A stretch of DNA of 64,000 nt from Minisyncoccota bacterium (GCA_041674285.1 JBAYVZ010000004.1:21913-85912); one strand, 5' to 3'; positions 4,164-64,000 are shown, counted from the first letter of the stretch. Notes: a model not told the origin generated them from the sequence alone. Numbers and translations are program-made.

Positions 4164-4347
4164 TGTCTTTTTTATAAAAAAATAATACTAGATACTGTCT
4201 TTTTGTGTGTCCATTATACACCTAAAATAGTTTCTAGCAACTAGACATGCAAGGCAAAAAAAGGTGGTCAGTATAGGTTATTTAAAGTACTAAAATCTAG
4301 CGCTCAAGCACTAGATTTATGATATAATTAGCATATAAATTTATGGT

Positions 4348-4468
4348 CCCGTTAGAAGTCATTTATGTCAGATCACGCACGGGAATAAATATTATTTTTT
4401 GAGTTATATTTTGATTTTATTATTTATAATTATGTACGATAATCTAAAGATTATCTACTTCTAACGGG
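4348..4468. repeat. Palindrome-bounded element, copy A: 12-bp perfect terminal inverted repeats CCCGTTAGAAGT / ACTTCTAACGGG enclosing a 97-bp AT-rich core with an internal 7-bp-stem/TAAA-loop hairpin; the 3' arm abuts the ftsK ATG
   Basis: 4348-4359 cccgttagaagt; 4457-4468 acttctaacggg; ATG of ftsK at 4469. Internal hairpin gataatc-taaa-gattatc at 4438-4455. Related copies at 22561-22677, 39291-39408 and 20736-20805; solo arm at 38027-38036. Confidence 0.7.
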
Positions 4469-6709
4469 ATGGCAAAAAAAGACATTGAAGATGAATTTGA
4501 AGACGATGAAGAATTCGAAGATGACGCTCCCATCCGCAGAAATTCCAGTAACGGAAAGAGGAAACCAGGGCCCAAAAAAGGATCAAAGCATCGCAGAAAA
4601 GTCGAACTAAAAGATGAAACCCGACAAAGTATTTGGGGTGTAGTTTTTTTTGTTTTCGCAATATTAATAATATTATCAATTTTTCACATAGGAGGTATCG
4701 CAGGTGATTTCTTGATGCAAGTATTAGGATCGTTCCTAGGCATTGGATACTACTTGCTCCCCGTAGTTTTAGGAGTACTCGGCGTATCATTTATGAGACG
4801 AGGCAGGCCAGAAGTTGCTACTCTGCATGCGATAGTTGGAGCTACTCTCATACTCTCTGTATTAGGTATTTGCGACATCACAGCTAACGGCGCAGGAGAA
4901 TCTACAAATCTCATATGGGGTGGATACCTAGGTAGTATCGTCGCATGGCCATTCATAAAATTATTCCGCGAGATCGGAGGCATCCTAGTCCTAGGAACTG
5001 TACTGATTGTATCCCTACTCGTACTCTTTGACGAGCGCCCAAACCTCATGCAAATCTGGGACAAGATAGTCGCATTCTTCAAGCAAGATATTCGCATAGA
5101 AAACAGTAATCAAGAATCTACCGCAGTAGAAGAAAACGAAGCAGAAGATTCTGCTCCTTTGAAAAAGATAAAACCACTAGAAGAGGAGTATGCGGAGACA
5201 GAGGAAGAGATGGAGCTAATAGAAAAACCTTTACCAAAATCCAAAAAATTTGTATCAAAAGCTTACACACCTCCCCCACTAACTCTCCTAGAAAAAGATA
5301 GCGGAAAGGCAAATGTCGGAGACACAAAATCAAACGTAAATATCATACAAAAAACTCTATTGAATTTTGGTATCCCAGTGGAGATGGACGAAGTAACAGT
5401 TGGACCTACTGTTACTAGATACGCACTCAAACCCGCTCAGGGGGTAAAGCTATCTCGTATAGTAGGACTCCAAAATGACCTAGCCCTATCTCTCGCTGCT
5501 CACCCTATACGTATCGAGGCACCTATCCCAGGTAAATCTCTAGTAGGTATAGAGATCCCAAACAAGGCAAAATCAACAGTCGGAATGGCGACGCTCCTAG
5601 CAGACGACAAGTTCCAAAACGCCCCAAAGCCATTAATGATTGCGTTGGGTCGAGGACTCTCTGGCAAGGCCCTATTCGGCAACCTAGCCAAGATGCCTCA
5701 TGCACTTATCGCTGGAACTACAGGCTCAGGAAAATCAGTCACAATCCACTCTGTCATAGTGTCTCTGTTATACAGGAATGGCCCAGAAGATTTACGATTT
5801 ATCATGGTGGATCCAAAGCGCGTAGAGCTCACCCTTTACAACAAGATCCCTCACCTACTCACACCTGTAATCACAGACCCAAAGAAGACAATCCTAGCCC
5901 TCAAATGGGCAGCAAAAGAGATGGACCGTCGATATGACCTGCTAGAGTCTCATTCTGTTAAAGATATTACCAGTTACCACGAAAATATCCTGGCAAAAGA
6001 CAAGAGTGGTGAATTGGAGCGTATGCCGTATATAGTCATCATTATCGATGAGTTGGCAGATATTATGCAGACATACCCAAGAGAGCTCGAGAGCGGTATC
6101 GTACGCCTCGCTCAGATGTCTCGTGCTGTCGGTATACACCTCATACTATCTACTCAGCGCCCATCTGTGAACGTCATCACAGGTCTCATCAAAGCTAATG
6201 TCCCTACTCGTATTGCCCTCCAAGTAGCATCCCAGATTGACTCTCGTACAATTCTAGATCAAGCAGGAGCTGAAAAATTGCTAGGTGCCGGAGATATGCT
6301 ATACGCAGGCGCAGAGATGAGTCAGCCAGAGCGTCTACAATCAGCATTCATATCAGAAAATGAAGTGAAGAAGGTGGTAGAATACCTAAAAGATGCATAT
6401 ATGGACGAATTACCAGATACTATCGAGCTATCTGGTTCGATAGAAAATGGCAACAACCTATTCAACGGCAGTCTGACAGATGAAGGTGGCGATGATGACC
6501 TATATGAAGACGCGAGGCAAATAGTGATTGAAACTGGAAAAGCCTCTACCTCATACCTACAGAGAAAGCTAGGAGTCGGATACGCTCGTGCAGCAAAACT
6601 GATAGATATGCTAGAAGACAGAGGTATAGTCGGTCCAGCCAATGGATCAAAACCTCGTGATGTATTAGAAAGACCAGTCGATCATATAGGTAGCGAAGAA
6701 CAAATCTAA
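4469..6709 (+). CDS. ftsK: DNA translocase FtsK/SpoIIIE
   Basis: N-terminal TM helices; Walker A AGTTGSGKSVTIHSVIVSLL, motor domain, and C-terminal gamma (winged-helix) domain YLQRKLGVGYARAAKLIDMLEDRGIVGP. Confidence 0.92.
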   Translation: MAKKDIEDEFEDDEEFEDDAPIRRNSSNGKRKPGPKKGSKHRRKVELKDETRQSIWGVVFFVFAILIILSIFHIGGIAGDFLMQVLGSFLGIGYYLLPVVLGVLGVSFMRRGRPEVATLHAIVGATLILSVLGICDITANGAGESTNLIWGGYLGSIVAWPFIKLFREIGGILVLGTVLIVSLLVLFDERPNLMQIWDKIVAFFKQDIRIENSNQESTAVEENEAEDSAPLKKIKPLEEEYAETEEEMELIEKPLPKSKKFVSKAYTPPPLTLLEKDSGKANVGDTKSNVNIIQKTLLNFGIPVEMDEVTVGPTVTRYALKPAQGVKLSRIVGLQNDLALSLAAHPIRIEAPIPGKSLVGIEIPNKAKSTVGMATLLADDKFQNAPKPLMIALGRGLSGKALFGNLAKMPHALIAGTTGSGKSVTIHSVIVSLLYRNGPEDLRFIMVDPKRVELTLYNKIPHLLTPVITDPKKTILALKWAAKEMDRRYDLLESHSVKDITSYHENILAKDKSGELERMPYIVIIIDELADIMQTYPRELESGIVRLAQMSRAVGIHLILSTQRPSVNVITGLIKANVPTRIALQVASQIDSRTILDQAGAEKLLGAGDMLYAGAEMSQPERLQSAFISENEVKKVVEYLKDAYMDELPDTIELSGSIENGNNLFNGSLTDEGGDDDLYEDARQIVIETGKASTSYLQRKLGVGYARAAKLIDMLEDRGIVGPANGSKPRDVLERPVDHIGSEEQI

Positions 6710-51513: not shown

Positions 51514-52413
51514 TTATAACAGATTTAGAGTTCTTTCTTTTATTGAATCATATTTATCTTTTTGTTCGGAGTAGGCAAAGAATGCGAGCGAACCTAATCC
51601 TATTCGAAGTTTGTAGCACAGCAGTCGCTCTTCAAAATTTTCTAAATTCATATCTCGATAGGCTTGCTCTGCGTTTTTGTTTGGGTCATTTCTAACTGAC
51701 CAAAACGATAGCCATGCTACGTCGTAAATAAAGTCTCCATACATAGATTCACCCCAATCAAGAATTCCTGTGATATTCTCCTTATCAGAGACCACATTAT
51801 TGCCACCGTAATCTGCGTGGACTAAATATCTCTCCTCTGGACACATTTCAGCAAGTTCTTCTATTTTAGAATATATCTTAACCCAAACATCTTTCTCTAG
51901 AATTGAATTTTCAAATAATTTATCTTTATCTAAATGTGACCCCACAGATAGTACAAATTCTTTCCAAGTCTCGAATTCCCCCACCCCGTCATTATTCCAT
52001 TTTCCAAAGCCATTTGAATCGCCAATATCAGTAGAACTTATTTCCCCCAATATCTCGAGTAGTTCGGGTAAGATTTTTTGATATTCATCTTCATTCAGCA
52101 GATTGAGAGTCGCGCCAAGAGCTTTCTTTGAAATACAAAGAAAGTGAATATCATCAAATTTTACAGTTTCTATTATTTCGGGGATTGGCAAGGTGCTCTT
52201 TGTAAAATACTTTGAAGCATATTCGTCTTTATAAAAACTACGCGCGCCCTTATTCACCCGAGCTACTAGGTCCATACCCTTTGAATTAAAAGCAAAAGCC
52301 TGTGAGGACTCCCCTCCTTTTAGGAATTCCAATTCTTTTATTTCTGCATCAAAATTTTCTCTTAGAAAAGAAAGGACTAGGCTCTGATCAATTTTTGTTT
52401 TTACTGTAGACAT
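51514..52413 (-). CDS. Aminoglycoside/phosphotransferase (APH)-family small-molecule kinase
   Basis: Catalytic loop LVHADYGGNNVV (HxDxxxxN) and metal-binding ILDWGESMYGD (D...D); Brenner/eukaryotic-like kinase fold signature. Confidence 0.6.
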   Translation of the reverse strand: MSTVKTKIDQSLVLSFLRENFDAEIKELEFLKGGESSQAFAFNSKGMDLVARVNKGARSFYKDEYASKYFTKSTLPIPEIIETVKFDDIHFLCISKKALGATLNLLNEDEYQKILPELLEILGEISSTDIGDSNGFGKWNNDGVGEFETWKEFVLSVGSHLDKDKLFENSILEKDVWVKIYSKIEELAEMCPEERYLVHADYGGNNVVSDKENITGILDWGESMYGDFIYDVAWLSFWSVRNDPNKNAEQAYRDMNLENFEERLLCYKLRIGLGSLAFFAYSEQKDKYDSIKERTLNLL

Positions 52414-52946
52414 TTTATTTTTATTTCATTACTTATTTTTAATTCTTCTGGAGTATTTATAAATTTTACAAAACCATCTGCCAATTCATCGGCGCTCAAA
52501 GAAGAAGAACTTTCAAAAACATAATGCTTAGGTTGAGACAGGACTTCTTTTTCTAAGTGATGAGCCCAATTTAAATTGTCTTGAATTAATTGATCATTCC
52601 AACCTCTTTCTTTTAATCTATTTTTAATCACCTCATCATCTGCGTGCAAAATACCAAAAACTAAATCTGTATCTTTATTTAAACTTGGTGAATTTAAAAT
52701 TTCAGAAGGAACACTAACTCCACATATAACTGTAGAGATTTTATTTTTCTCATTCTCATTTGAAATTTGTATCCATATATCCGTAGTCTCCTGTCTCCAC
52801 TCTTTACTAGGATTCTGAGGAACACCATTTTCATCAAAATCATGGACATCAAAACTATCTATCGGAAGTTTAGTTTTAAGGGATTCCATCAAAGTGGTTT
52901 TACCTGATCCACTAGTCCCAGTTATAAAATATATGCTCATATACAC
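52401..52946 (-). CDS. P-loop NTPase, nucleotide/small-molecule kinase-like (AAA_33-like)
   Basis: Walker A ITGTSGSGKTTL at the N-terminus; 181 aa; overlaps the APH gene by 13 nt (operon). Confidence 0.5.
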   Translation of the reverse strand: MYMSIYFITGTSGSGKTTLMESLKTKLPIDSFDVHDFDENGVPQNPSKEWRQETTDIWIQISNENEKNKISTVICGVSVPSEILNSPSLNKDTDLVFGILHADDEVIKNRLKERGWNDQLIQDNLNWAHHLEKEVLSQPKHYVFESSSSLSADELADGFVKFINTPEELKISNEIKIKCLQ

Positions 52947-52989
52947 AGTATACCAAATAAAAACCCTCCTGTTTGGAAGGGTTTTATTA

Positions 52990-53586
52990 TTATTCTTTAA
53001 AGTATTTATTTTTTAAAAATTCTGTTAAATCATCCATCTCTTTTCTGGATAAATCCAAAATAGTTCTTTTATTTTCAATAGAATTATTCTCAGCATTTTC
53101 CAACCCTACTGGAGCTAAGCTGTACATTGAATCTTTTGTAAAGACCGAGACGCCGTAGTGGTAAGGTGACCATTCTTTTCCGGAATAGAATTCGTCCAAC
53201 AAAATTTGAACCTTGTTCTTTAGATTTGAAGATTCTTCTTTTATTGATTCCAGAAGTTCACGATACTCAGGACTATCACCCTTGACATTTCTATATTTTG
53301 TATTTATTTCGTTTGATTCTTTTGAGTAGAATTGAGAATGTTTTTTTGATCCGAATATAACACTAGGATATGGCTTTTCTTTTTCTACATGCCCTTCACA
53401 AGATTCCATAGTATTTACACCCAGGAGGTTCATAACCACAACTGTATCCATAACACCCTCTTCCATTTTTTCATTCTCAAATTCAGATGCTGACTTTAAA
53501 ATATTCTGTTTTATATCATCCCAAGCTTTCTGTTTGATTGAAATATTTTCAGGATCAGTTTTAATAAAACTTTCTAGATTTTTCAT
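52990..53586 (-). CDS. Hypothetical protein
   Basis: 198-aa ORF, acidic, no recognisable motif. Last gene of the helicase-kinase string before the repeat region. Confidence 0.3.
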   Translation of the reverse strand: MKNLESFIKTDPENISIKQKAWDDIKQNILKSASEFENEKMEEGVMDTVVVMNLLGVNTMESCEGHVEKEKPYPSVIFGSKKHSQFYSKESNEINTKYRNVKGDSPEYRELLESIKEESSNLKNKVQILLDEFYSGKEWSPYHYGVSVFTKDSMYSLAPVGLENAENNSIENKRTILDLSRKEMDDLTEFLKNKYFKE

Positions 53587-53597
53587 AAATTAAATAT

Positions 53598-53832
53598 ACC
53601 AGAAAAGTCTTTCGATTCCCAGACACTGGGACCGCGAGTACGCTTATCGCCGATTACATCGGCAGGTACTTTTCGCTCTGGTAAACCAGAGAACGAAAAG
53701 TCTTTCAATTCCCAGACGACTACTGGGACCGGCAGTAGCCTTATCGGTCCTTACAGGACCAGTATACCTTTTGCATTTTTCTGGAGTACTCTCCATAAAA
53801 ATAAGCAAAAGGTTTTCGATTCCCAGACGGAA
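53598..53832 (+). repeat. Three tandem, degenerate ~95-bp repeat units each starting with a tRNA T-arm-like block (gaaaagtctttcgattcccagac...), in inverted orientation relative to the adjacent tRNA-His
   Basis: Units begin at 53601, 53695 and 53808. The first two share gaaaagtctttc[g/a]attcccagac-N6-8-ctgggaccg-gcagta-cttatcg. TTCGATTCCCAG equals the T-loop/T-stem of the neighbouring tRNA-His. Confidence 0.6.
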
Positions 53833-53896
53833 CATGCTCAAGCATGTTCCTTAGTCCCCCAATAGAAAAAGCCGGCACAAGGCCGACTTTTTCTAT

Positions 53897-53971
53897 TGGG
53901 GGACTACTGGGAATCGAACCCAGATCGAAGGTTCCACAAACCTCAGTGTTAACCGTTACACCATAATCCCC
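53897..53971 (-). tRNA. tRNA-His (anticodon GTG)
   Basis: Minus-strand sequence GGGGATTATGGTGTAACGGTTAACACTGAGGTTTGTGGAACCTTCGATCTGGGTTCGATTCCCAGTAGTCCCCA folds as a cloverleaf with anticodon loop TTGTGGA (GUG) and T-arm CTGGG-TTCGATT-CCCAG. A 15-bp perfect-stem hairpin follows its 3' end. Confidence 0.8.
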
Positions 53972-53983
53972 ATATATACAATC

Positions 53984-54538
53984 CTACTTGTAAGTAGGAG
54001 GTTCCTCATTTATACCAGAAAAGTGGTTAGAAAGTCTAGCTAGTGCATAAAGTAGTGAAGAAAGTCGATTTAGATAAGCTTTTGTATAATCACCCACTTT
54101 TATATTCCCCTCGTCCGCTACACCTATCACTCTCCTCTCTGCTCTGCGTGAAATAGTACGAGCGACATCAAAAAATGCCGCCAATTCTGTGCCCCCAGAA
54201 ATAAAAAAAGATTTTATTGGTGGCAATTCTTTTTCTATTGTATCTACATAATTTTCTATCTCTTTTATTTTTTCCTCGGCTATAGTCATATCACTACCAG
54301 CGAGCTCTGCCTGCACAATAAAAAGATTTTGCTGTACATCATGTACAACTTTTTCAAAAAGTTCACCTGTCGGAACTTTATACCCCTTTTCAGAACTCTT
54401 TACTTTGCAGACACCCAAAAAAGAATTGATCTCATCGAGAGTCCCTAGCGCCTCTGCTATATTTGAACTCTTTGATATTCTCTGGTCGCAGCCAAAAGTT
54501 TTCGTTGTTCCATTGTCCCCTTTTCTTGTATAAAGCAT
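53984..54538 (-). CDS. ATP:cob(I)alamin adenosyltransferase, PduO/MMAB type
   Basis: MLYTRKGDNGTTKTFGCDQRISKSSNIAEALGTLDEINSFLG matches the PduO-type N-terminus (IYTKTGDKGxT.L..G.RV.K...R.EAYG.LDELNS). Confidence 0.8.
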   Translation of the reverse strand: MLYTRKGDNGTTKTFGCDQRISKSSNIAEALGTLDEINSFLGVCKVKSSEKGYKVPTGELFEKVVHDVQQNLFIVQAELAGSDMTIAEEKIKEIENYVDTIEKELPPIKSFFISGGTELAAFFDVARTISRRAERRVIGVADEGNIKVGDYTKAYLNRLSSLLYALARLSNHFSGINEEPPTYK

Positions 54539-54539
54539 G

Positions 54540-54968
54540 TTAGATATATAGACGATAAAAAGCTAATAAAAACATAAGGATAGATATCAATGCAGATGAT
54601 ATACACCACACACACCACTGTTTAATCAGAAAGCTTTGAATAAACAAAAGATAGACAGAGAATAGCACAGACATGCCAGATATCACAATAAATAGCTCGT
54701 TTATAAAAGGTGTCCACACAAGATAAAAATTTACAAACAGATAGGCTGATGTGATAAATAAATAATATACCAAACCTAGAACTTCCACGCGGAAAGGTCC
54801 AACCACAGAATAATCACTATTCGTCACAAGCTCACAATCTGTCCTAGCTGGGCAAATCAATTTTTTCTTTTCACTCTTTTTTCTATAAATATAGAAAGCG
54901 ACGAGGAAGCCCGAGATCCCGAGTATGACGAATATTATAGAGATAATCAATTCTAGGTTTATTTGCAT
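54540..54968 (-). CDS. Vitamin K epoxide reductase (VKOR)-family membrane oxidoreductase
   Basis: 142 aa, 4-5 TM; loop Cys pair (CPARTDC) and TM CxxC (WCVWCI), the VKOR redox arrangement. Confidence 0.6.
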   Translation of the reverse strand: MQINLELIISIIFVILGISGFLVAFYIYRKKSEKKKLICPARTDCELVTNSDYSVVGPFRVEVLGLVYYLFITSAYLFVNFYLVWTPFINELFIVISGMSVLFSVYLLFIQSFLIKQWCVWCISSALISILMFLLAFYRLYI

Positions 54969-56770
54969 ACAGTTCCAGATAAGGCGATTTTTGTAGTTAT
55001 CTTTTTATTTGTACTATCTACACAGACATAGCTACCAGTCTCTGATGCCAATGGAAATGACATAGCCCAAGCTTTAGTTGTAGAGTAGCAAGATCCCTCT
55101 CCGTCCGTATTATCAAATATTTTACCCAAGAAAAACGAGATAGTGTTTGTATTCATATCATTAGGGTCAGTATAGAAAAGAGAATCTTTTTCTGGGTCAA
55201 CACAACTGCCTTTGAGGTTTGACTTGGTTCCATACAGGTTTTTATTCAATGCATACTTTTTATATATTTGAAGCTCAATATTAGAAATATTTTCTTCTAT
55301 ATTTTTATCTTTTATCTTCAGAGCTTCGATATCTACAGCGGAATTAGGAGGCACAAGGACATCTACACCACCAGACCCTTCAGTCTGGCCAGATTCATCA
55401 AATACAAAAGAATTAGTAACATTATTTAATTCCAAGTTCGTATTATTTTGCTGATTTGAATTTTGTTCATTTATTATTGGGTCGATATATTTTGCAGTTA
55501 CAGCTGTCTGATTAATCTTTGGCAAAAAAGGAATATCTATCAGTCCAGTCGTGTAAGCAAAAGCCACCCCACCAAAAATACAAGCAATCGCAACAAAAAT
55601 AAAAACTCCAACAATGAATCTTGGGACACCAGGTTTTTTCTCTTCAAAAACAAAATTCTTTGAATCACGAGGGAATGATGAAGTAACTGCACTATTCGGA
55701 GAATATGGGGCAGGTGCTGATACTGGCATAGATACTGGACTAGTTACAGGTTTTGACAATTCTTGTTTGGCAAAGACCATATAAGGTGGCTTGCCAGACG
55801 GAGCTGATGTAGCAGGAGCGATATTTACAACTGGAGGAACAGAAACAGTGGGGGTAGGATTTATTTCTACTGCTGGACTGGCTAGAGTGGATACTGGAGC
55901 TGGAGTAGACACACCTGGCATAGGCGCTGAAGATGACGCTGGCACTGTAGACATAGCTATGGGGGCACTCATCGCAGGGGGCACTATATTGTCCTCCACA
56001 GGGGCCACTGATGGCTTCTGATAAACTTTTGCAAGTTCTGCTTTTCTCTCTGGTGTACGCACTGGCGGTAATACAGCCTTTGGTGAGACAACTGGTTCTA
56101 CCTTTTTAGGAATCAGTCTGGGTATAACTTCTGTGTTCTCAGAAGAAATGATAGGTATATTTGAAGGTGTCCAGACTTTTGGGAGATTCGATGGTGGCAC
56201 AGAAGCAGAAAAACTATTTTCAATAGGCTTATCCTCTTTTACCACTTCCCTATATGGATCTATCTTTGGAGTTTCTGGCTCAATATTAGAATCTATTTTT
56301 ACTTCTGGTGTTAATACTATATCGGGGGCAGGCGCAGAAACTGGAGTTGGCTCCACAATAGGAGCTACTGAAATTTGTGGTTCTATATTTTTAACAATTT
56401 GAGTTGCTGGTTTTTCTGAAGTTGATGGTTCTAGTATTTGTACTGATTCTACTGTTTTTACCTCAGGCATTTTTTCTGATTCTGGAGTTTTTATTTCTGC
56501 AGGAACAACAATATCCGCCTTTGGTTCAGCTGGGGGTGTACTAAAGGCCGGAGTAAAAGTAGTTTGTATTTTAGGAGCAACAGGTTCTACCATCTTGGGT
56601 ACAACAAAAGCAGGAGCAACCTTCTGGAAACCTTCTTCGATATCTTCTGCTAGCCAACCAGCAGAAAGTAGCTCGGATTTAATTTTCTCACGAGGTGTAC
56701 CATTCTTTTCTTCTTTCTCAATAAACTCTACAAGATCAAGAGTAATCATATGATAAATTATATCACACAA
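54959..56770 (-). CDS. Pro/Ser/Val-rich membrane protein with C-terminal Cys-containing ectodomain
   Basis: ~330 aa low-complexity P/S/A/V-rich region; single TM FIVGVFIFVAIACIFGGVAFAY at ~aa 385; C-terminal 200 aa with 4 Cys. Confidence 0.4.
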   Translation of the reverse strand: MCDIIYHMITLDLVEFIEKEEKNGTPREKIKSELLSAGWLAEDIEEGFQKVAPAFVVPKMVEPVAPKIQTTFTPAFSTPPAEPKADIVVPAEIKTPESEKMPEVKTVESVQILEPSTSEKPATQIVKNIEPQISVAPIVEPTPVSAPAPDIVLTPEVKIDSNIEPETPKIDPYREVVKEDKPIENSFSASVPPSNLPKVWTPSNIPIISSENTEVIPRLIPKKVEPVVSPKAVLPPVRTPERKAELAKVYQKPSVAPVEDNIVPPAMSAPIAMSTVPASSSAPMPGVSTPAPVSTLASPAVEINPTPTVSVPPVVNIAPATSAPSGKPPYMVFAKQELSKPVTSPVSMPVSAPAPYSPNSAVTSSFPRDSKNFVFEEKKPGVPRFIVGVFIFVAIACIFGGVAFAYTTGLIDIPFLPKINQTAVTAKYIDPIINEQNSNQQNNTNLELNNVTNSFVFDESGQTEGSGGVDVLVPPNSAVDIEALKIKDKNIEENISNIELQIYKKYALNKNLYGTKSNLKGSCVDPEKDSLFYTDPNDMNTNTISFFLGKIFDNTDGEGSCYSTTKAWAMSFPLASETGSYVCVDSTNKKITTKIALSGTVCK

Positions 56771-56781
56771 ACATCTACAAA

Positions 56782-57351
56782 TTAAAATTTATAGATATAT
56801 AATTTTCGAGCATTAGTATAATCACCCTCTCTATCCATATCAATCTCGGCAATCGGTTGCTTGTTTGTAAACTTAAAAGCCACGGACACGAGAGTAGTCC
56901 CCTCTTTTATCTCTTCATCAAACTTTTTTAAAATATCATCCATAACATTTGGATAAAGATACATAACCAGATGAGTGGCATCACTAAAGTTGTAATCATA
57001 AAAATCTTCTTTAATTATTTTTACTCCATCGATACCTTTTATTTTATTTATATATTTTCTAGCGACAGAAAGAACGTACGGGAAACTAAATTTTTCCAAT
57101 CCGACAAATGTAGCTTTTGGATTATTCTTTTTGAGGAAATACAACAACCGTGCATCACCAGAACCCAGATCGTAGACGACTGAATCATCTTTTAATTCCA
57201 GAGCCTTCAACACATAAGGCAATACACTCCTAGGTGTACGGATAAATGGAGTGTCTGTCTTTATGAAAGACATAGCCCACATACAGGCCAAGATAAACAA
57301 GACTATGACAATAGCTGTGAAAAGATAAATAATTATAGAAAAAAATATCAT
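56782..57351 (-). CDS. Class I SAM-dependent methyltransferase with N-terminal TM anchor
   Basis: Motif I VYDLGSGDARLLYFL; acidic motif II FVGLEKF. Confidence 0.6.
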   Translation of the reverse strand: MIFFSIIIYLFTAIVIVLFILACMWAMSFIKTDTPFIRTPRSVLPYVLKALELKDDSVVYDLGSGDARLLYFLKKNNPKATFVGLEKFSFPYVLSVARKYINKIKGIDGVKIIKEDFYDYNFSDATHLVMYLYPNVMDDILKKFDEEIKEGTTLVSVAFKFTNKQPIAEIDMDREGDYTNARKLYIYKF

Positions 57352-57353
57352 TG

Positions 57354-57435
57354 TGCCCGGGACTGGACTCGAACCAGCACATCTTACGACACACCCACCT
57401 CAAGGGTGCTTGTCTACCAATTTCAACACCCGGGC
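57354..57435 (-). tRNA. tRNA-Leu (anticodon GAG), long variable arm
   Basis: GCCCGGGTGTTGAAATTGGTAGACAAGCACCCTTGAGGTGGGTGTGTCGTAAGATGTGCTGGTTCGAGTCCAGTCCCGGGCA: 7-bp acceptor; anticodon stem CACCC/GGGTG with loop TTGAGGT; long extra arm; T-loop TTCGAGT. Confidence 0.75.
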
Positions 57436-57485
57436 AAACACTTACAAGAGTGAGCATAACAGATTTAGGTCTTTTTTTCAATAAA

Positions 57486-57514
57486 AAATAAAACCACCCA
57501 ATGGGTGGTTTTAT
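57486..57514. terminator. Terminator hairpin aaaaccacccaatgggtggtttt downstream of rplS
   Basis: Identical core to the 46078-46106 terminator. Confidence 0.55.
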
Positions 57515-57517
57515 TTT

Positions 57518-57955
57518 TTATTCAGCAGATTTCTCTTCTGTATCTGTAGACTCTTCTTTTGAAAGAGTGATACTCTTTAGGCGCTTCTTAACTTCTTTAA
57601 CAGCCTTTGTACGGATAAAGTATAGCTTACTTCGGCGTGTCTTTGAGCGTTTGATAATCTCAATCTTGTCGATATTTGGAGAATATAGAGGAAAGATTCT
57701 TTCTACTCCGATAGTTGAAGCAACTTTACGTATTGTAAATGTAGCACCAATCTCGGCACCATGTTTACGAGCCAAAACTAGGCCCTCAAAAGCCTGAAGA
57801 CGAACTTTTCCTTTTTCTAAAATTTTTGACCAGACCTTAACAGTATCACCTGCTTTGAAATCAAGCTTTTTGCGAGCTTCGATATCTACTGGAGTTAATT
57901 TCATTGTGGTTTTTTCCATAGGCGTTAATATAGCATAAGAAAATGTTTTAAGCAA
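57518..57955 (-). CDS. rplS: 50S ribosomal protein L19
   Basis: GDTVKVWSKILEKGKVRLQAFEGLVLARKHGAEIGATFTIRKVASTIGVERIFPLYSPNIDKIEIIKRSKTRRSKLYFIR is canonical L19; lysine/glutamate-rich C-terminal tail. Confidence 0.88.
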   Translation of the reverse strand: MLKTFSYAILTPMEKTTMKLTPVDIEARKKLDFKAGDTVKVWSKILEKGKVRLQAFEGLVLARKHGAEIGATFTIRKVASTIGVERIFPLYSPNIDKIEIIKRSKTRRSKLYFIRTKAVKEVKKRLKSITLSKEESTDTEEKSAE

Positions 57956-57961
57956 GATTTT

Positions 57962-58756
57962 CTATTTTAATTGATGATTATTGATAACTTTTACGAAATC
58001 CGTAGGCAGTGGAGCCTCGACTTCTATTTCTTGCCCTGAGAGGAGTATGAATTTGATAGATTTTGCATGTAGGGCCAGTCTGTCAAAACCTAGAGATTTT
58101 TCTTTCTTACCTCTGTATATAGGATCTGAGATAATCGGGTGGTTTATATATCGTAGGTGCACACGGAGCTGATGGGTGCGGCCAGTTTTTGGGTAAAGCT
58201 CCAGATAAGAGAATTGGTGACTGTTGTCTTTGATCTCCACCTCATCTTGTGTATCTGTAAATCTAGACAGGACTACATACCCAGTCTTTGCTTCACGTAT
58301 AGGATCCCGGGCACCACGCCCTGCAGTCCACATACGTACATCTCCGGGAGATCTCCCTATTGGGGCATTGATTACGCCCATCTTGCCATTCAAAAGTGAG
58401 GCATTGGGATCTGCTACATATCCATAAACAAAAGCTCGGTAAACTTTCTCAATAGTATGATTCTTGAATTGATCTTTCAAGAACAAAAAGGATTCCTGGT
58501 TCTTTGCCAAGATGATCACTCCTGAAGTTTCGCGATCGAGACGGTGTACTATACCCGGACGCATGATTGCACGTCTCTCCCCACCTTTTGCATCTACCAT
58601 CAATGGCTCCCCTACATCTTTTGATTCTGGGTATTGTTTTATAAACCAATCAGCCAGTGTCTCATCCTTGTTCTTTCCATCGTTGTGCACAGAAATACCA
58701 GACGGTTTGTCTACCACCACCAAATCATTATCTTCATATAGAATAGTTACTTTCAC
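57962..58756 (-). CDS. RluA-family pseudouridine synthase (probable GTG start at 58756; the ORF-track N-terminus is antisense to tRNA-Val and is not real)
   Basis: VVVDKPSGISVH and catalytic HRLDRETSGVIILAKN (RluA motif with catalytic Asp). The first 30 residues of the track ORF are the reverse-complement reading of the tRNA-Val gene. Confidence 0.8.
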   Translation of the reverse strand: MKVTILYEDNDLVVVDKPSGISVHNDGKNKDETLADWFIKQYPESKDVGEPLMVDAKGGERRAIMRPGIVHRLDRETSGVIILAKNQESFLFLKDQFKNHTIEKVYRAFVYGYVADPNASLLNGKMGVINAPIGRSPGDVRMWTAGRGARDPIREAKTGYVVLSRFTDTQDEVEIKDNSHQFSYLELYPKTGRTHQLRVHLRYINHPIISDPIYRGKKEKSLGFDRLALHAKSIKFILLSGQEIEVEAPLPTDFVKVINNHQLK

Positions 58757-58758
58757 GG

Positions 58759-58831
58759 TGCGCGATGAGGGACTTGAACCCCCGACCTTCCCGGTGTAAA
58801 CGGGTTGCTCTACCAACTGAGCTAATCGCGC
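58759..58831 (-). tRNA. tRNA-Val (anticodon TAC)
   Basis: GCGCGATTAGCTCAGTTGGTAGAGCAACCCGTTTACACCGGGAAGGTCGGGGGTTCAAGTCCCTCATCGCGCA: D-arm GCTC/GAGC; anticodon loop TTTACAC; T-arm CGGGG-TTCAAGT-CCCTC. Confidence 0.8.
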
Positions 58832-58925
58832 ATAAAAACTTGAAAACAATTTAATAGATAAACAATAACCTATTTCAAGACTTTTTTCAAGTCCTCCTTG
58901 CGAGAAAGTTAATTTTAAGGTATTT

Positions 58926-59080
58926 TAAGTAAATATCCTTGTAGTGTATAAGATATAAACCGTACATACTGTAGTCAAGGTTTTGGTGTTAAATGTAGTA
59001 AATATACGCCCTTGTAGTGTATGTGATATAAACCGTACATACTGTAGTCAAGGTTTTGGTGTTAAATGTAGTAAATATAT
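58926..59080 (+). repeat. Two-and-a-half tandem ~72-bp direct repeats, each ending with the first 11 nt of tRNA-Arg (GCCCTTGTAGT) followed by a degenerate tRNA-like segment; the third unit runs into the intact tRNA
   Basis: Unit 58990-59062 taaatgtagtaaatatacgcccttgtagtgtatgtgatataaaccgtacatactgtagtcaaggttttggtgt. The preceding unit (58926-58989) is ~90% identical with a small deletion. The next unit (59063-) continues as gcccttgtagttaaatggatataactgcgg..., i.e. the real tRNA. Confidence 0.7.
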
Positions 59081-59152
59081 GCCCTTGTAGTTAAATGGAT
59101 ATAACTGCGGACTTCTAAGCCGTTATTGCAGGTTCGATTCCTGCCGAGGGCA
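59081..59152 (+). tRNA. tRNA-Arg (anticodon TCT), with a non-canonical A31:G39 pair
   Basis: GCCCTTGTAGTTAAATGGATATAACTGCGGACTTCTAAGCCGTTATTGCAGGTTCGATTCCTGCCGAGGGCA: acceptor 7 bp; D-stem GTTA/TAAC; anticodon loop CTTCTAA; T-arm GCAGG-TTCGATT-CCTGC. The A:G mismatch at the base of the anticodon loop lowers confidence in function. Confidence 0.6.
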
Positions 59153-59181
59153 CAAAGCAAAGTAACATACTTATATTTTTA

Positions 59182-59227
59182 GCGGACAAAAAAGCCGTTA
59201 TTGCAGGTTCGATTCCTGCCGAGGGCA
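59182..59227 (+). repeat. Duplicated 3' half of tRNA-Arg (anticodon stem through 3' end; loop replaced by CAAAAAA), 30 nt downstream of the intact gene: att-site-like scar
   Basis: gcggacaaaaaagccgttattgcaggttcgattcctgccgagggca. Identical to the tRNA from position 39 to the 3' end (agccg...gagggca) and in the 5' anticodon stem (gcgga). It lacks the acceptor 5' strand and the D-arm. Confidence 0.7.
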
Positions 59228-59238
59228 CAATATAAATA

Positions 59239-59265
59239 AAATACCTCCCCTATTGGGGAGGTATT
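59239..59265. terminator. Bidirectional terminator aaatacctcccctattggggaggtatttt between the tRNA-Arg locus (+) and the pil genes (-)
   Basis: 10-bp stem with flanking A/T runs. Confidence 0.55.
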
Positions 59266-59613
59266 TTATTTCTTAAAACGAGGGTCTTCTAATTTTAGAT
59301 TACTATCCCTTAGTGATTCCATTTTTTTAGCCTTTATATCAAAATAGCTCTTTACATTATTCAACAATTTTTCATTCCTAGAAATCAAAGTATTTTTTGA
59401 AGAAAACTCCAAACTTTTATTTAAAAAATTATCATTTTTTATTTCATATAACAGATAGAAGCTTGATATAACCAAAAGAAACAGAATCACAAAAAAAGAA
59501 TTCAACATAAAAATCCAATGCTTGTGTGGATTCATACACACAGACTTTTTGTGATGTTTTATGAAAAGAGATTTTATATCTAATATATTCATATTAAAAA
59601 GTATATACTTCAA
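59266..59613 (-). CDS. Small membrane protein, last gene of the pilMNO cluster (PilP-like position)
   Basis: 115 aa with one TM (IFMLNSFFVILFLLVISSFYLLY); function by position only. Confidence 0.3.
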   Translation of the reverse strand: MKYILFNMNILDIKSLFIKHHKKSVCMNPHKHWIFMLNSFFVILFLLVISSFYLLYEIKNDNFLNKSLEFSSKNTLISRNEKLLNNVKSYFDIKAKKMESLRDSNLKLEDPRFKK

Positions 59614-60148
59614 ATAATATTTCAGCGACCCAAGGATACCAAACTTCCCCCTTTTTTAGAACCTGGGCCGGAGTACCATCTTTGTTCGCAATATTCGTAT
59701 TTATATTTAAAGATTTTATATTTACAATATAAGGTATACTCTCGACCATTTTTATAGACTTAAACACAGAGACGAAGCTTCCCTCTATGGACAATCCTAT
59801 ATTTATAACCCGTTTATCTTCTTTTGAAAAATCAACAGATGACACTGAGGTTTTATTTCCCAGACTATTTGAATCTTTTTCAAGACCAGAAACAAAGTCA
59901 TCAATGGAGTCTGGATTAATAAAATATGAATCTACTATTTTATTATCATCAACAGCTTCTTTTATATTTTTAGACAAAATAGATCCTTGCTGTTTTTGCA
60001 TAATCTTTTCATCCAAAGTCGCCTGCATCGCACTTGTATGAATATTTTTATTCATAATAACAGTGAACAAAAAAGCAAAAAAACCCACAGACAAAATCAA
60101 TAGAATAGAAGAGATTATAAATAAAATGGTTGTTTTAGATTTTTTCAT
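59594..60148 (-). CDS. Type IV pilus assembly protein PilO-like (bitopic)
   Basis: N-terminal TM plus ~150-aa periplasmic domain; follows pilN. Confidence 0.45.
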   Translation of the reverse strand: MKKSKTTILFIISSILLILSVGFFAFLFTVIMNKNIHTSAMQATLDEKIMQKQQGSILSKNIKEAVDDNKIVDSYFINPDSIDDFVSGLEKDSNSLGNKTSVSSVDFSKEDKRVINIGLSIEGSFVSVFKSIKMVESIPYIVNIKSLNINTNIANKDGTPAQVLKKGEVWYPWVAEILFEVYTF

Positions 60149-60149
60149 A

Positions 60150-60689
60150 TTATTTCAGAATTAATACCATGTTAAAATCTATATCCTGTGGTTTAATAAA
60201 ATTAGAAATAGGCAAATCTACAGAAGAAAAAGTTTGATCGGCAGAGAGTGCGTCTTTAAAAGTCCTAAGTGCAGTTCTATCACTAGCAATACCCACTATA
60301 TTAACAGTCGCTTTTTTTAACCCAGCGATATTATAAGATATCTGACTGAATACTACCCCCTGAGTCCGGAGGGATAATATTTTCTCTAAAACATATTCAG
60401 AAATATACGAATCATTTTTCTTTGAAATTATAAAAGACAATTTTTCGTTTGTTTTTAAAATTTCATTGTTTAATTTATCTATATCAATCTGTGGATTTTG
60501 AGCATTAAAAATTTCTAGATTTGACTGAGCTATCCCCTCTCTGAGGACTGAGTATTTGTATGATGGAGAGATAAACAACGCAGCAACTACGGCAAGAATT
60601 GATATCATAAAAAAAGAAACAATTAAAAGTCGGAATAGATATTCCTGTCTTAATTTATCTTTATCTTTTTTGGGTAATAGATTAATCAT
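60150..60689 (-). CDS. pilN: Type IV pilus assembly protein PilN
   Basis: N-terminal INLLP motif (MINLLPKK), a hallmark of PilN, then a single TM and periplasmic domain. Confidence 0.7.
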   Translation of the reverse strand: MINLLPKKDKDKLRQEYLFRLLIVSFFMISILAVVAALFISPSYKYSVLREGIAQSNLEIFNAQNPQIDIDKLNNEILKTNEKLSFIISKKNDSYISEYVLEKILSLRTQGVVFSQISYNIAGLKKATVNIVGIASDRTALRTFKDALSADQTFSSVDLPISNFIKPQDIDFNMVLILK

Positions 60690-61761
60690 ATAAATAATCT
60701 CCTAATGCCAGACCAAGCACGGTAACATAAGACAAAGATTCTTTTGCTGACATATACGGAACTGATTCATCCATGTTTGATATATTGGTCCAAGCATTTG
60801 CATACTCTACACGGGTTTTAAAACTGACAGAGAGGTACGAAGATAGGCCTGGTATATTTGACCCACCTCCACATAGAATAATCTTGGATATTGGATTTCT
60901 ACTTTTACCACTTTCTGATTTATGAGTAGCCCAATAAACAAAATGCTTATTTATCTCATCGCGAAGTACGGCCACCACGTTTAGAACTGCGGGAAAAATA
61001 TCTTCACCGCTCTCTATCCCCAACTCCCCAAAGGCATATTTTTTCTTCTCGGCATCTTCGATAGAAATATTGTAGTGCTTTGCTATCATCTCCGTAAAAG
61101 TATCTCCCCCGATATCAAAAGTAGAAGTAAATACAATCTTTCTGTTCACTGCTATAGATATCCCTGTGCGAGTCTCTCCAAAATCTATAATCATAGTAGT
61201 GCCGATATCTTCCATTGAGATAACAGCTTCAGCTATAGACTGAGCCTCCAGTTCAAAAGATATAGGTATGAGCCCCGCGCGATTAAAAACAAATAGATAA
61301 TCTTCGACAACCTCAGAAGAAATGGCTACCACCTCCACTGTCACATGGGTATCGGTCTCAGACAAAACCTCATAATCAAAAAGAGTGGATTTTGCAGAAA
61401 GAGGAATATGGTCTTCGAGTTGCAACAAGATTGTATCTCTGAGGCCAGTCTCTTCTATCTTTACAACAGACAAGGTAAAAAGATATATTTGTTCCTCGGG
61501 CAGAGCCACTCGGACAAATTCCATATTTTCTTTTTCTTTTAATCTGCTCAAGATTACGATAAGCTCTTCGGGATCCTCTATCCTACCTGATTTTATTATC
61601 CCGCTATCGATTTTTTCCCTGCCATACTTCCCTAGCCTCAATCCAGAAGGAGACATCTTTAATTCACCGTATTTGATAGAGTGATCAGATATGTCCATAG
61701 AATAAGAAAACATACCGAGTAGTTTGGGTGTAGGAAAATGCTTGCTGTATAATTGCTTCAT
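60682..61761 (-). CDS. pilM: Type IV pilus assembly protein PilM (actin-like ATPase fold)
   Basis: ~350 aa, FtsA/actin-like two-domain pattern (GIDIGTTMIIDFGETRTGISIA...ILCGGGSNIPGL); precedes pilN with an 8-nt overlap. Confidence 0.78.
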   Translation of the reverse strand: MKQLYSKHFPTPKLLGMFSYSMDISDHSIKYGELKMSPSGLRLGKYGREKIDSGIIKSGRIEDPEELIVILSRLKEKENMEFVRVALPEEQIYLFTLSVVKIEETGLRDTILLQLEDHIPLSAKSTLFDYEVLSETDTHVTVEVVAISSEVVEDYLFVFNRAGLIPISFELEAQSIAEAVISMEDIGTTMIIDFGETRTGISIAVNRKIVFTSTFDIGGDTFTEMIAKHYNISIEDAEKKKYAFGELGIESGEDIFPAVLNVVAVLRDEINKHFVYWATHKSESGKSRNPISKIILCGGGSNIPGLSSYLSVSFKTRVEYANAWTNISNMDESVPYMSAKESLSYVTVLGLALGDYLYD

Positions 61762-61801
61762 CGTATTTATATTATACGATAGATACTATCAATATAAAAG
61801 T

Positions 61802-62398
61802 TTATTTTGTTTTAGATAAATAATTTCTAATCAGAGTTGCCAGTACTGGGATCAATGACAAAAATACGATGCCTACAACTACAGGGATGATATACGTATC
61901 TGGATTGGGAATTAAATTTCCAAAGAAATACCCGAGTGAGAGTAATGAAACGGACCACAGGATTCCCCCAAAAATATTGTAAGAGATGAATGTCTTGTAA
62001 TCCATCCTAGCAACTCCAGCAACTATAGGAGCAAATGTACGGATCACAGGGATGAAGCGAGCTAGTATTATCGTATACTTGCCATGCTTTTCATAAAAAT
62101 GCTCAGCTTGATGCAATCTCTTTTTCTTAAAGAAAAAACCCGCTTCTTTTTCAAATAAAGATCTGCCCATACTCTTTCCTGACCAGTACCCCACACTATC
62201 CCCTAGTATCGCTGCGATGGAACACAAAATTAAAAGCAATCTAATATCCAAAAATCCTTGAGATGCGATGAGTCCTGCAGTGAACAGCAGAGAATCTCCT
62301 GGGAAAAAGAATCCAAAGAAAACACCGGATTCCAAGAATACGATAACTACTATTCCGATTAAACCAACTGTCTGTATTAAATTTATAGGATCTAGCAT
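61802..62398 (-). CDS. DedA/VTT-family membrane protein
   Basis: FLESGVFFGFFFPGDSLLFTAGLIAS...LGDSVGYWSGK is the canonical DedA signature ([F/Y]xxxR/GxxxPGD...G). Confidence 0.8.
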   Translation of the reverse strand: MLDPINLIQTVGLIGIVVIVFLESGVFFGFFFPGDSLLFTAGLIASQGFLDIRLLLILCSIAAILGDSVGYWSGKSMGRSLFEKEAGFFFKKKRLHQAEHFYEKHGKYTIILARFIPVIRTFAPIVAGVARMDYKTFISYNIFGGILWSVSLLSLGYFFGNLIPNPDTYIIPVVVGIVFLSLIPVLATLIRNYLSKTK

Positions 62399-62402
62399 AA
62401 AA

Positions 62403-62777
62403 TTATCTTATCTTGGAACCATTATCTACTTCGACTTCAGGAGTTATAAAAACAGGTGCACCGTCACGGCCATCTACAGCCATCAGCATACCCTGACTCT
62501 CGAAACCTTTTATCTTTCGTGGCTCCAAGTTTACGATGTAAAGAATTTGTTTGCCAATCAATTTTTCATAATCTGGATAAAATTCTCGAATACCAGATAC
62601 TATTTGTCGAAGTTTTGGCTCTGTAGTTTTTTCTTCACCTTCCCCTACTTCTACTGTCTCACCAAAATCAATCTGGCATCGTAGTAGTTTGTCTGTATCG
62701 GGAACAGGCTCGACTTCCCTAATCGTTCCAAATCTTATATCCATTTTTTTAAATTCATCGTATGTTATGTATTCCAT
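62403..62777 (-). CDS. tRNA-binding domain protein (CsaA/Trbp111/EMAP-like OB fold)
   Basis: DIRFGTIREVEPVPDTDKLLRCQIDFGE...LRQIVSGIREFYPDYEKLIGKQILYIVNLEPRKIKGFESQGMLMA matches the Myf/tRNA-binding OB domain found at the C-terminus of MetRS/PheT. Confidence 0.75.
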   Translation of the reverse strand: MEYITYDEFKKMDIRFGTIREVEPVPDTDKLLRCQIDFGETVEVGEGEEKTTEPKLRQIVSGIREFYPDYEKLIGKQILYIVNLEPRKIKGFESQGMLMAVDGRDGAPVFITPEVEVDNGSKIR

Positions 62778-62796
62778 TTCTTTATTTTAATTATTT

Positions 62797-63777
62797 CTAA
62801 AGCGTATTAACTAACTTATCTTGAGACGATATGTCACCATCCAATTCTCCAATTTTACGAAAAGTATCAGCACCAAATGTTTCATCCACTAATCTTCCCA
62901 GTGGCAAAATATTTCCAGTTATCATTCCTTTAAAGAATACTTCAAGGACTTCTTCTTTATCTTTGAATTTTTCAGTATTCTTCTGATAAATTTTATCAAC
63001 TAAAGTGTGCAAAATTTTCCTTTCTTGTTTATACGTAAACCTTTCTGTATTTATTATAGTATTATATTTTTTACCAACTAAGCGCCCGACTGCCTCTCTC
63101 AATGATTTACGATTCTGTGTTTCTGCATAAAAAGTATCCTCATTAAAAAGTGGCTTTCCAGGCTCGATAATAGCTTGTGGATGTTTAGATATTATTTCTT
63201 TTGTCTGATTTACTTCATCGATAAAAAGTTTATTATCTAGAATTTTCAATACAGTCCTTTTTGTTATCTCTTCTGTAACTGCTTCATTGAGATTTGTAAA
63301 ATATATTTTATCTCCATCTCTGGTCTGAACAGTTAAACCTAGCCGATATTCTGATAGTTCAGGTTTTTCAACGTTAGTAATTTGAAGGGCATTATATGAT
63401 TTAAAGTGCAGCATTTCATGAAAAACCTTAGCAGTGAATGCTAGATTAGAAAAATTCTCACGCATAACAACACCTTGCATGCCTGAATTAAAATAAGCTG
63501 TATTTTTTTCATCTGACCATTTTTCATCAGAAACAACATGAATATTATCCGGCGGTACGTCAAAATTTTCTAAACCATATTTTTGCCTAATTTCATTTGT
63601 AAGATTATTAACCATATCAATAATCTGCAACTCATTTGATGTTTTTTTTCTTTCAACCCTCTTTAAATGATCAAAGGCTTGATCGTTAAATGACTCCCCA
63701 CTGTGTCTAAGAATTTGTTCTTGTTCTTTTTCTGAAATTTTTCCGACAACTCGGTCAATTGATGAAAATTTTTCCAT
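62797..63777 (-). CDS. Hypothetical protein with HExxH motif (possible zinc metallopeptidase-like)
   Basis: VFHEMLHFKSY contains HEMLH; no other conserved feature recognised. Confidence 0.3.
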   Translation of the reverse strand: MEKFSSIDRVVGKISEKEQEQILRHSGESFNDQAFDHLKRVERKKTSNELQIIDMVNNLTNEIRQKYGLENFDVPPDNIHVVSDEKWSDEKNTAYFNSGMQGVVMRENFSNLAFTAKVFHEMLHFKSYNALQITNVEKPELSEYRLGLTVQTRDGDKIYFTNLNEAVTEEITKRTVLKILDNKLFIDEVNQTKEIISKHPQAIIEPGKPLFNEDTFYAETQNRKSLREAVGRLVGKKYNTIINTERFTYKQERKILHTLVDKIYQKNTEKFKDKEEVLEVFFKGMITGNILPLGRLVDETFGADTFRKIGELDGDISSQDKLVNTL

Positions 63778-63786
63778 TCTATTATT

Positions 63787-64000
63787 TTAATTACTTTTTA
63801 AATTTTTCTTTTCGAGATATCTCTGTAGTATGAGTGCGGCGGCAGAGGCATCGGCGGGATTTTGTTTTTCTTTTGCTGTCTTACGGGCATTGTTCACCTC
63901 TTTGCCACCCCTACCCCGAGCCTCTATGGTAGTCATGAATTCTTTTTGTAGATAAACAGGAAGATCACACTCTATCTCTATATTCTTTACAAATGTTTCA
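63787..64000 (-). CDS. ruvX: YqgF/RuvX (RuvC-like) Holliday-junction-resolvase-like nuclease, C-terminal part (truncated by window edge)
   Basis: Minus-strand translation ...FVKNIEIECDLPVYLQKEFMTTIEARGRGGKEVNNARKTAKEKQNPADASAAALILQRYLEKKNLKSN* matches the YqgF C-terminus (DERLTTvEA...D..AA.ILQ.YL). Confidence 0.5.
   Translation of the reverse strand, partial: ETFVKNIEIECDLPVYLQKEFMTTIEARGRGGKEVNNARKTAKEKQNPADASAAALILQRYLEKKNLKSN

Follow-up and report, generated by a model that had tools for sequence, protein, structure and literature searches.

Partial copies of a tRNA-Arg(UCU) gene lie on both sides of the intact gene in a Patescibacteria genome

Classical tRNA-targeting integrases leave 3′ fragments of tRNA genes, and the identity blocks of tRNA-targeting elements reportedly begin at the anticodon stem and run slightly past the end of the tRNA. 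Documented partial tRNA genes stem from the integration of elements and, in rare cases, from the uptake of CRISPR spacers, with the copies kilobases apart and the element between them (PMC9897764). At such attL/attR duplications (Reiter 1989; Williams 2002; van der Gulik et al. 2023, PMC9897764), as at the locus described here, a direct repeat of the 3′ portion that starts at the anticodon stem stands beside an intact tRNA gene. The present locus differs in that 29 nt separate the two sites, no integrase or element was found, the copies differ in the anticodon loop, and 5′ fragments, which classical tRNA integration does not make, are found upstream of the gene.

Three other described systems resemble parts of this arrangement. 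Islands of dusA-specific integrases (PMC4482086), which insert at the 5′ end of a gene and restore it, would have a 5′ gene fragment upstream and the intact gene downstream of the insert, much as here; those islands are kilobase-scale and carry an integrase, whereas the inserts at this locus are non-coding and 29–62 nt long. Intergenic variable-number tandem repeats share with the upstream array a head-to-tail order, a constant period, differences of whole units, higher identity within an array, and degenerate edge copies, but here the unit embeds the 5′ part of an adjacent essential gene and holds an 18-nt block that is invariant across lineages. Finally, a group I intron at the anticodon loop can make Patescibacteria tRNA genes look partial (bioRxiv 10.1101/2025.07.03.662931), and these genes have in common with our locus the phylum, adjoining partial matches, and a break point at the anticodon loop. 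A tRNA gene split by a group I intron was ruled out here, as the tRNA is intact and uninterrupted, the gap is 29 nt, and the Rfam model Intron_gpI had no match at E≤10 in positions 52000–64000. In the literature searched, the coverage of which was incomplete, we found no description of conserved 5′-half repeats in bacterial tRNA leaders.

The window, by which we mean the whole 64,000-nt stretch of DNA that was analyzed, is a housekeeping stretch from the genome of an ultra-small bacterium of the Patescibacteria (Paceibacterota/Nomurabacteria-like). It contains four tRNA genes. Running ARAGORN, a check that the initial annotation had proposed, returned one tRNA-Arg(tct) at 59081–59153, and the search for a second tRNA-Arg(TCT) gene found none in the window besides this one. 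The Rfam tRNA model scores the gene at 62.7 bits over 59081–59152, and its alignment contains the A31:G39 mismatch that had been pointed out earlier as the one non-standard pair. Because the 34-nt 3′ segment of the gene that includes G39 has an exact match in every related locus retrieved, this mismatch is native to the gene and not a sign of decay.

Upstream of tRNA-Arg lies a divergent tRNA-Val(TAC) gene (Table 1), the 3′ end of which is 2 nt from the GTG start codon of an RluA gene (58756, minus strand, from translation). A mechanical ORF (57962–58849, minus strand) and the recorded 295-aa gene call both overrun tRNA-Val; the true RluA start is the GTG at 58756. Between the two tRNA genes, a candidate native promoter for tRNA-Arg can be read from the sequence, and transcription would be expected to start at about 58933, just 5′ of the first repeat unit. 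Its TTGCGA and TATTTT hexamers occur with equal spacing in three related loci (L003, L032, and L011), and it scores under the threshold of a consensus scan for sigma-70-type promoters. Downstream, a perfect hairpin that is kept in L002 and L011 is predicted to be a bidirectional terminator, common to the tRNA-Arg unit and a convergent pilus-gene operon. An exact-protein look-up of a small ORF downstream of tRNA-Arg gave no match.

Table 1. Features of the tRNA-Arg(UCU) locus, in window coordinates.
Feature	Position	Strand	Description and evidence
tRNA-Val(TAC)	58757..58831	-	Divergent partner of tRNA-Arg; ARAGORN; Rfam tRNA 68.6 bits
Candidate native promoter of the tRNA-Arg unit	58898..58926	+	TTGCGA, 17 nt, TATTTT; read from sequence; inference
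Repeat unit 1 (73 nt)	58935..59007	+	Degenerate tRNA 5′ fragment ATCCTTGTAGT, invariant block, AT-rich tail
Invariant 18-nt block, unit 1	58952..58969	+	GATATAAACCGTACATAC; lineage comparison
Repeat unit 2 (73 nt)	59008..59080	+	Exact tRNA positions 1–11 (GCCCTTGTAGT), in-register D-loop motif GATATAA, invariant block, tail
Invariant 18-nt block, unit 2	59025..59042	+	GATATAAACCGTACATAC; lineage comparison
Intact tRNA-Arg(UCU)	59081..59152	+	No encoded CCA; sole tRNA-Arg(TCT) of the window; ARAGORN, Rfam
Filler (26 nt)	59156..59181	+	AGCAAAGTAACATACTTATATTTTTA; first part of the 75-bp block missing in L011
Partial tRNA copy	59182..59230	+	tRNA positions 27–72 plus CAA; AAAA at 59188–59191 replaces TTCT; otherwise identical to the gene
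Hairpin, perfect, 17 bp	59234..59271	.	Flanked by A and T runs; inverted-repeat search

The initial annotation had described two 72-bp tandem repeats upstream of the gene, each bearing the first 11 nt of the tRNA followed by a tRNA-like continuation. Two units are indeed present (58935–59080, directly 5′ of tRNA-Arg), but Tandem Repeats Finder gives their period as 73 (58937–59091, 2.1 copies, 96% matches), and a repeat search placed three copies of the tRNA start in register, at spacings of +73 and +73. Each unit opens with the first 9–11 nt of the tRNA: the match is exact over 11 nt in unit 2 and holds at only 9 of 11 positions in unit 1. A 44-nt pattern of the unit had 0 chance matches in 100 shuffles. 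The continuation fared less well. Beyond position 11, likeness to the tRNA consists of the D-loop motif GATATAA only; in-register identity over tRNA positions 12–72 is non-significant (p=0.21), and no Rfam tRNA match was obtained at E≤10 for the units either in context or alone. On these results the possibility that the units are decayed copies of the whole tRNA was ruled out.

Relatives were gathered by way of the neighboring RluA gene, by exact searches for proteins of the window, and by searches of metagenomes with the tRNA 3′ 34-mer. The core of the unit precedes the equivalent tRNA-Arg gene in several lineages, and its copy number across the clade is 0, 1, 2, or 3. There are two 73-nt units in L011 (JACCDZ011663635.1), one unit of 71 nt in L031 and one of 57 nt in L032, and three and two 52-nt units in L033 and L034, respectively; L003, L002, L027, L036, and L037 have none. 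The L033 and L034 loci, which encode an identical RluA protein, are exactly one 52-nt unit apart. Within each array the most degenerate copy is the most upstream one, and in L032 the fragment opens with GCCCCTG, as does the tRNA, which indicates concerted change. Slippage during replication, one of the processes put forward by the initial annotation, fits the upstream array, as does unequal crossing-over.

Between the window and L011, ∼5.5% of sites differ within RluA and ∼12% downstream of the terminator. Across the intergenic sequence, 1 of 249 sites differs (58979, G/A, which is also the sole difference between the two in unit 1), and the probability of at most one difference at the RluA rate is ∼1e-5. 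This near-identity of the cassette might come from recent recombination, with the conserved tRNAs as anchors, rather than from selection.

As first reported, a 3′ portion of the tRNA from the anticodon stem through the 3′ end is repeated after the gene: 59107–59155 and 59182–59230 form a 49-nt direct repeat with 92% identity (45/49) at a spacing of 75, and the gap between tRNA-Arg and the copy is 29 nt rather than the thirty first given. The altered anticodon loop was also described correctly, with the four differences contiguous (TTCT to AAAA) at tRNA positions 33–36, which are U33 and the anticodon. Scored alone, the copy reaches 19.2 bits as a 5′-truncated tRNA, under the 29-bit gathering score of the Rfam model. 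In L011, which is ∼93% identical in the flanking genes and alike in its two upstream units, CAATATAAAT and the terminator come straight after the tRNA, so the extra 75 bp of the window (the 26-nt filler and the 49-nt copy) is an indel. The copy is missing in L011, L003, L031, L032, and 21 metagenome loci, and no other locus has two 34-mers. These comparisons point to a 75-bp insertion or duplication that is young and private to this lineage. BLAST-short searches for a source of the filler or of the unit, made against the window and the loci collected by then, returned short chance matches only.

An assembly artefact was rejected as the origin of the repeats, as L011, an independent assembly from a lineage 93% identical, has both upstream units. 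In SRR6484325, the Logan k=31 unitigs stop exactly at the point where the 3′ repeat gives way to unique sequence, as expected if both junctions exist in the reads. In addition, the name of the 258-kb contig to which the window is identical (ERZ27247358:k141_1702343) implies assembly by megahit with 141-mers, which would span the tRNA, the filler, and the copy.

Based on these comparisons, the reading that we on balance favor is that this is a single functional tRNA-Arg(UCU) gene that bears polar partial duplications at both ends, formed by gain and loss of repeats while one intact copy was always kept, with no need for an integrase or a resident mobile element. The transcription unit would probably extend from the candidate promoter to the hairpin (Table 1). 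The repeat would be composed of the 5′ part of the tRNA (positions 1 to ∼24, possibly ∼32), the invariant 18-nt block, and a fast-diverging AT-rich tail, and it would be a repeat found throughout a subclade of Paceibacteria. Slippage or unequal recombination between units would take its copy number anywhere from 0 to 3, a step that the relatives show, and the units would probably lie in a 5′ leader that RNase P removes, a step that we infer. At the other end, the 75-bp block between the tRNA and the terminator would most likely be a one-off duplication with filler, or else a small non-coding insertion; it would act as a non-functional trailer, easily lost by recombination between the 39-nt identical stretches. 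Comparison of the unit tails with the native upstream sequence found no significant similarity (p=0.14–0.85), so a simple tandem duplication is not demonstrated as the origin of the first unit. Random drift does not explain the four adjacent changes (TTCT to AAAA) in the downstream copy.

The initial annotation had read the downstream copy as the footprint of a tyrosine integrase. In such an account the copy is an attR-type scar of an element that was later deleted to 26 nt, or the trace of a tiny element mobilized in trans. The copy does take in the anticodon stem from its first base onward and continues 3 nt beyond the tRNA, like the identity blocks of tRNA-targeting elements, and to this extent the resemblance to a classical attachment site stands. 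Comparison with L011 also places the distal, incomplete copy in the ancestral downstream context and shows the filler to be foreign. Small non-coding elements are found at tRNA 3′ ends in related contigs, between 15–19-nt direct repeats of the tRNA end (L024, L030, and L022), and a crossover 3′ of the anticodon loop followed by near-total deletion would fit the copy. Gene and copy are identical over 39 nt (positions 37–72 plus 3). Against the scar, they differ at 4 of the 7 bases of the anticodon loop, in conflict with a crossover in the loop, and a further event would be required, namely the removal of nearly the whole element with both sites left in place.

The searches for an element and its integrase were negative within their scope. 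No integrase or recombinase family was found by Pfam in 10 window ORFs, where the matches were to FtsK, RecJ, P-type ATPase, ribonucleotide reductase, and similar proteins, and none was recognizable by eye among 29 further ORF translations from the window, of which the recognizable ones were housekeeping proteins (RecA, EF-G, ribosomal proteins, PilC, and others). The cognate integrase that had been proposed was thus not found in either set. Nor did insertion variants between the 3′ copies turn up among relatives: across ∼30 related loci there was no element at the tRNA-Arg site, only empty sites (L011, L003, L031, L032, and the 21 metagenome loci). The attP of the postulated element would carry ...TTTTTAGCGGACAAAAAAGCCGTT...; the tRNA 3′ 34-mer had 0 matches in IMG/VR viral contigs, hence no attP there, and a 16-nt block had four chance matches in viral contigs, each without tRNA context. 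The exact 41-nt terminator pattern had no match in metagenomes. An integrase mechanism at this locus is therefore not supported by positive evidence, and we regard the scar as somewhat unlikely. The comparative data indicate that partial tRNA genes, usually read as footprints of elements, can arise and persist without any element, and that att-site calls made from a tRNA fragment alone call for caution in small, repeat-poor genomes.

The whole arrangement could instead be neutral, a variable-number tandem repeat next to a random duplication, with the apparent conservation of the units produced by recent horizontal exchange of the Val-Arg cassette. The intergenic sequences of the relatives fall into two unrelated types. 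Type I (window, L011, L003, and L032) has the promoter TTGCGA, 17 nt, TATTTT, and type II (L002, L031, L033, L034, and L027) has the promoter TTGAAT...TGCTATATT. The Val-Arg cassette next to RluA is divergent in the window, inverted relative to RluA in L002, L033, L034, and L036, and tandem in L037. Neither the types nor the orientation track RluA similarity to the window (a comparison of similarities, not a tree), which suggests exchange, for which the conserved tRNAs could serve as anchors, and no promoter, RNA structure, or coding signal was detected within the units. Weighing against neutrality, the tails of the units are 27–65% identical across four lineages while the adjacent 18 nt are unchanged, a contrast that recent transfer of whole units would not yield. 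We consider this explanation unlikely, a little more so than the integrase scar.

A third alternative is a mirror-image event, in which an element that targets the 5′ half of the tRNA gene came with a promoter and 5′ half of its own (like the dusA islands) and later shrank to 29–49 nt, with the upstream units as the scars of this site-specific insertion. It would fit the fragments of L031 and L032, which sit at the promoter-relative place of the tRNA in unit-free relatives, the occurrence of the unit core in both intergenic cassette types, and our own reading of the three fragment families examined (tRNA-Arg and two sets of tRNA-Val fragments), in which homology to the tRNA is lost around the anticodon loop. 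But it is very improbable, given that no relative showed an element or integrase at the site, that a scar should decay whereas the 18-nt block is invariant and the 5′ fragments are conserved across lineages, and that copy-number shifts of whole units between near-identical genomes are the behavior of repeats.

Under the favored reading of repeat gain and loss around one intact gene, the 18-nt block calls for separate consideration. It is identical at 18 of 18 positions in all six pairwise comparisons among four lineages, whereas the tails differ in length as well as in sequence. Elsewhere in the 64-kb window it has no match, also when 3 mismatches are allowed. On the plus strand of the units there is no sigma-70-type promoter at a 9-of-12 threshold (two hexamers, 16–18-nt spacing). 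A weak TTGTAG, 17–18 nt, TACATA arrangement that is common to all lineages can be read by eye; this pairing is insufficient, as it would leave the invariant spacer unaccounted for. The folding energy of six units showed no gain over shuffles (z from -1.6 to +1.5), and the hairpin potential of GTATGT/ACATAC in the units shifts in register. A minus-strand micro-ORF (MYGLY...) was rejected, since third codon positions within the block do not vary either, the frames diverge after the block, and no ribosome-binding site is visible. A dif/Xer-like site was also rejected, since by our reading the pattern of arms and spacer does not fit.

With no promoter, fold, or coding signal in the units, and with the block specific to this locus in the window, what remains is a recognition site that is linear and sequence-specific, whether in DNA or in RNA. 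Invariance of the block may then imply selection for a sequence-specific cis role in the expression or maturation of tRNA-Arg, a suggestion that we make tentatively. If the block is functional, it would offer a rare handle on how tRNA supply is regulated in ultra-small bacteria with single-copy tRNA genes. A broader proposal is that Paceibacteria tRNA genes carry an undescribed cis element, a 5′-leader module of variable copy number that mimics the 5′ half of the tRNA, contains a strictly conserved recognition sequence (GATATAAACCGTACATAC), and tunes the transcription or maturation of a single-copy, high-demand tRNA, with the polar partial copies at Val, Leu, and Ser tRNAs as the same phenomenon. 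This generalization is speculative, and we think it distinctly less probable than a cis role at tRNA-Arg.

The polarity of the partial copies was surveyed by running ARAGORN on 29 non-redundant related sequences, which gave 74 tRNA genes with adequate flanks, and scoring matches to their ends (score ≥12). The first 36 nt of the tRNA had 10 matches within 200 nt upstream and 0 within 200 nt downstream (control), and the last 40 nt had 4 matches within 200 nt downstream and 0 within 200 nt upstream (control); many of the loci are homologous, so these counts are not independent. This polarity, with 5′ copies upstream and 3′ copies downstream, is the arrangement that keeps the intact gene between its promoter and its terminator.

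Degenerate copies of the 5′ half of tRNA-Val were observed upstream of intact tRNA-Val genes in L016/L025, L013, L014, L024, L027, L028, L031, L033/L034, and L002, in L016 as two tandem 55-nt units. These fragments recur in several lineages with diagnostic changes in common, for example GCTGTCTTGG for GCTCAGTTGG. They are old as well, and represent the same phenomenon as at tRNA-Arg.

Taken over all relatives, the description of the locus as a rearrangement hotspot holds: the number of units ranges from 0 to 3, presence of the 75-bp block varies, some lineages have the cassette inverted, and a MITE-like element is found at RluA in the closest relative. A fast-rearranging cassette bracketed by conserved tRNAs helps account for the breaks of contigs in metagenome assemblies. 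The MITE-like element is ∼320 bp long with terminal inverted repeats of ∼35 nt (TTGTACCAAGTTAGAACCTATTTTCAAAA) and occurs at L001:1–127, L019:4405–4725, and L018:3360–3429. In L001, the closest relative by RluA (98% aa), one end of it abuts the RluA start at the position that the tRNA-Val 3′ end has in the window, and the element is cut off by the end of the contig. L037 has an ORF with a reverse-transcriptase domain (RVT_1, 4343–4930) between the RluA and L19 genes, and an ORF with a faint LAGLIDADG_3 match follows the L19 gene in L035 (2859–3418) and L036 (4374–5051). These ORFs suggest that the neighborhood attracts selfish elements in more distant relatives.

A structured element of ∼115 nt was also noted downstream of three tRNAs, Arg-TCT, Val-TAC, and Ser-TGA (L024, L030, and L022, respectively, and also L015 and L021), where it follows a palindromic terminator. 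It starts with an inverted copy of the 3′ strand of the tRNA acceptor/T-arm, has the core ...TCGAAAG CTTTTC[hairpin]GAAAAG GTAYAC..., and ends with a direct copy of the last 15–19 nt of the tRNA. The L024 element (115 nt) ends 10 nt upstream of the RluA start and occupies the place where the tRNA adjoins RluA directly in L013 and L023. No Rfam family matched the element, and it may be an undescribed miniature element or RNA that mimics tRNA ends.

Two further features of tRNA flanks were observed. In the window, a long palindrome (53845–53914), which gives spurious microRNA matches in Rfam, overlaps the 3′ end of tRNA-His (53898–53970, minus strand), and the terminator stem of this gene appears to take in the 3′ strand of the tRNA acceptor, like other tRNAs of the clade. 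A conserved GC-rich motif, GAGGCGGGGTCGCGAGATTTTTCA..AGAAAAATATTTGTGACCAA, occurs in the flanks near tRNA-Val or tRNA-Arg in L010, L020, L022, L023, and L029.
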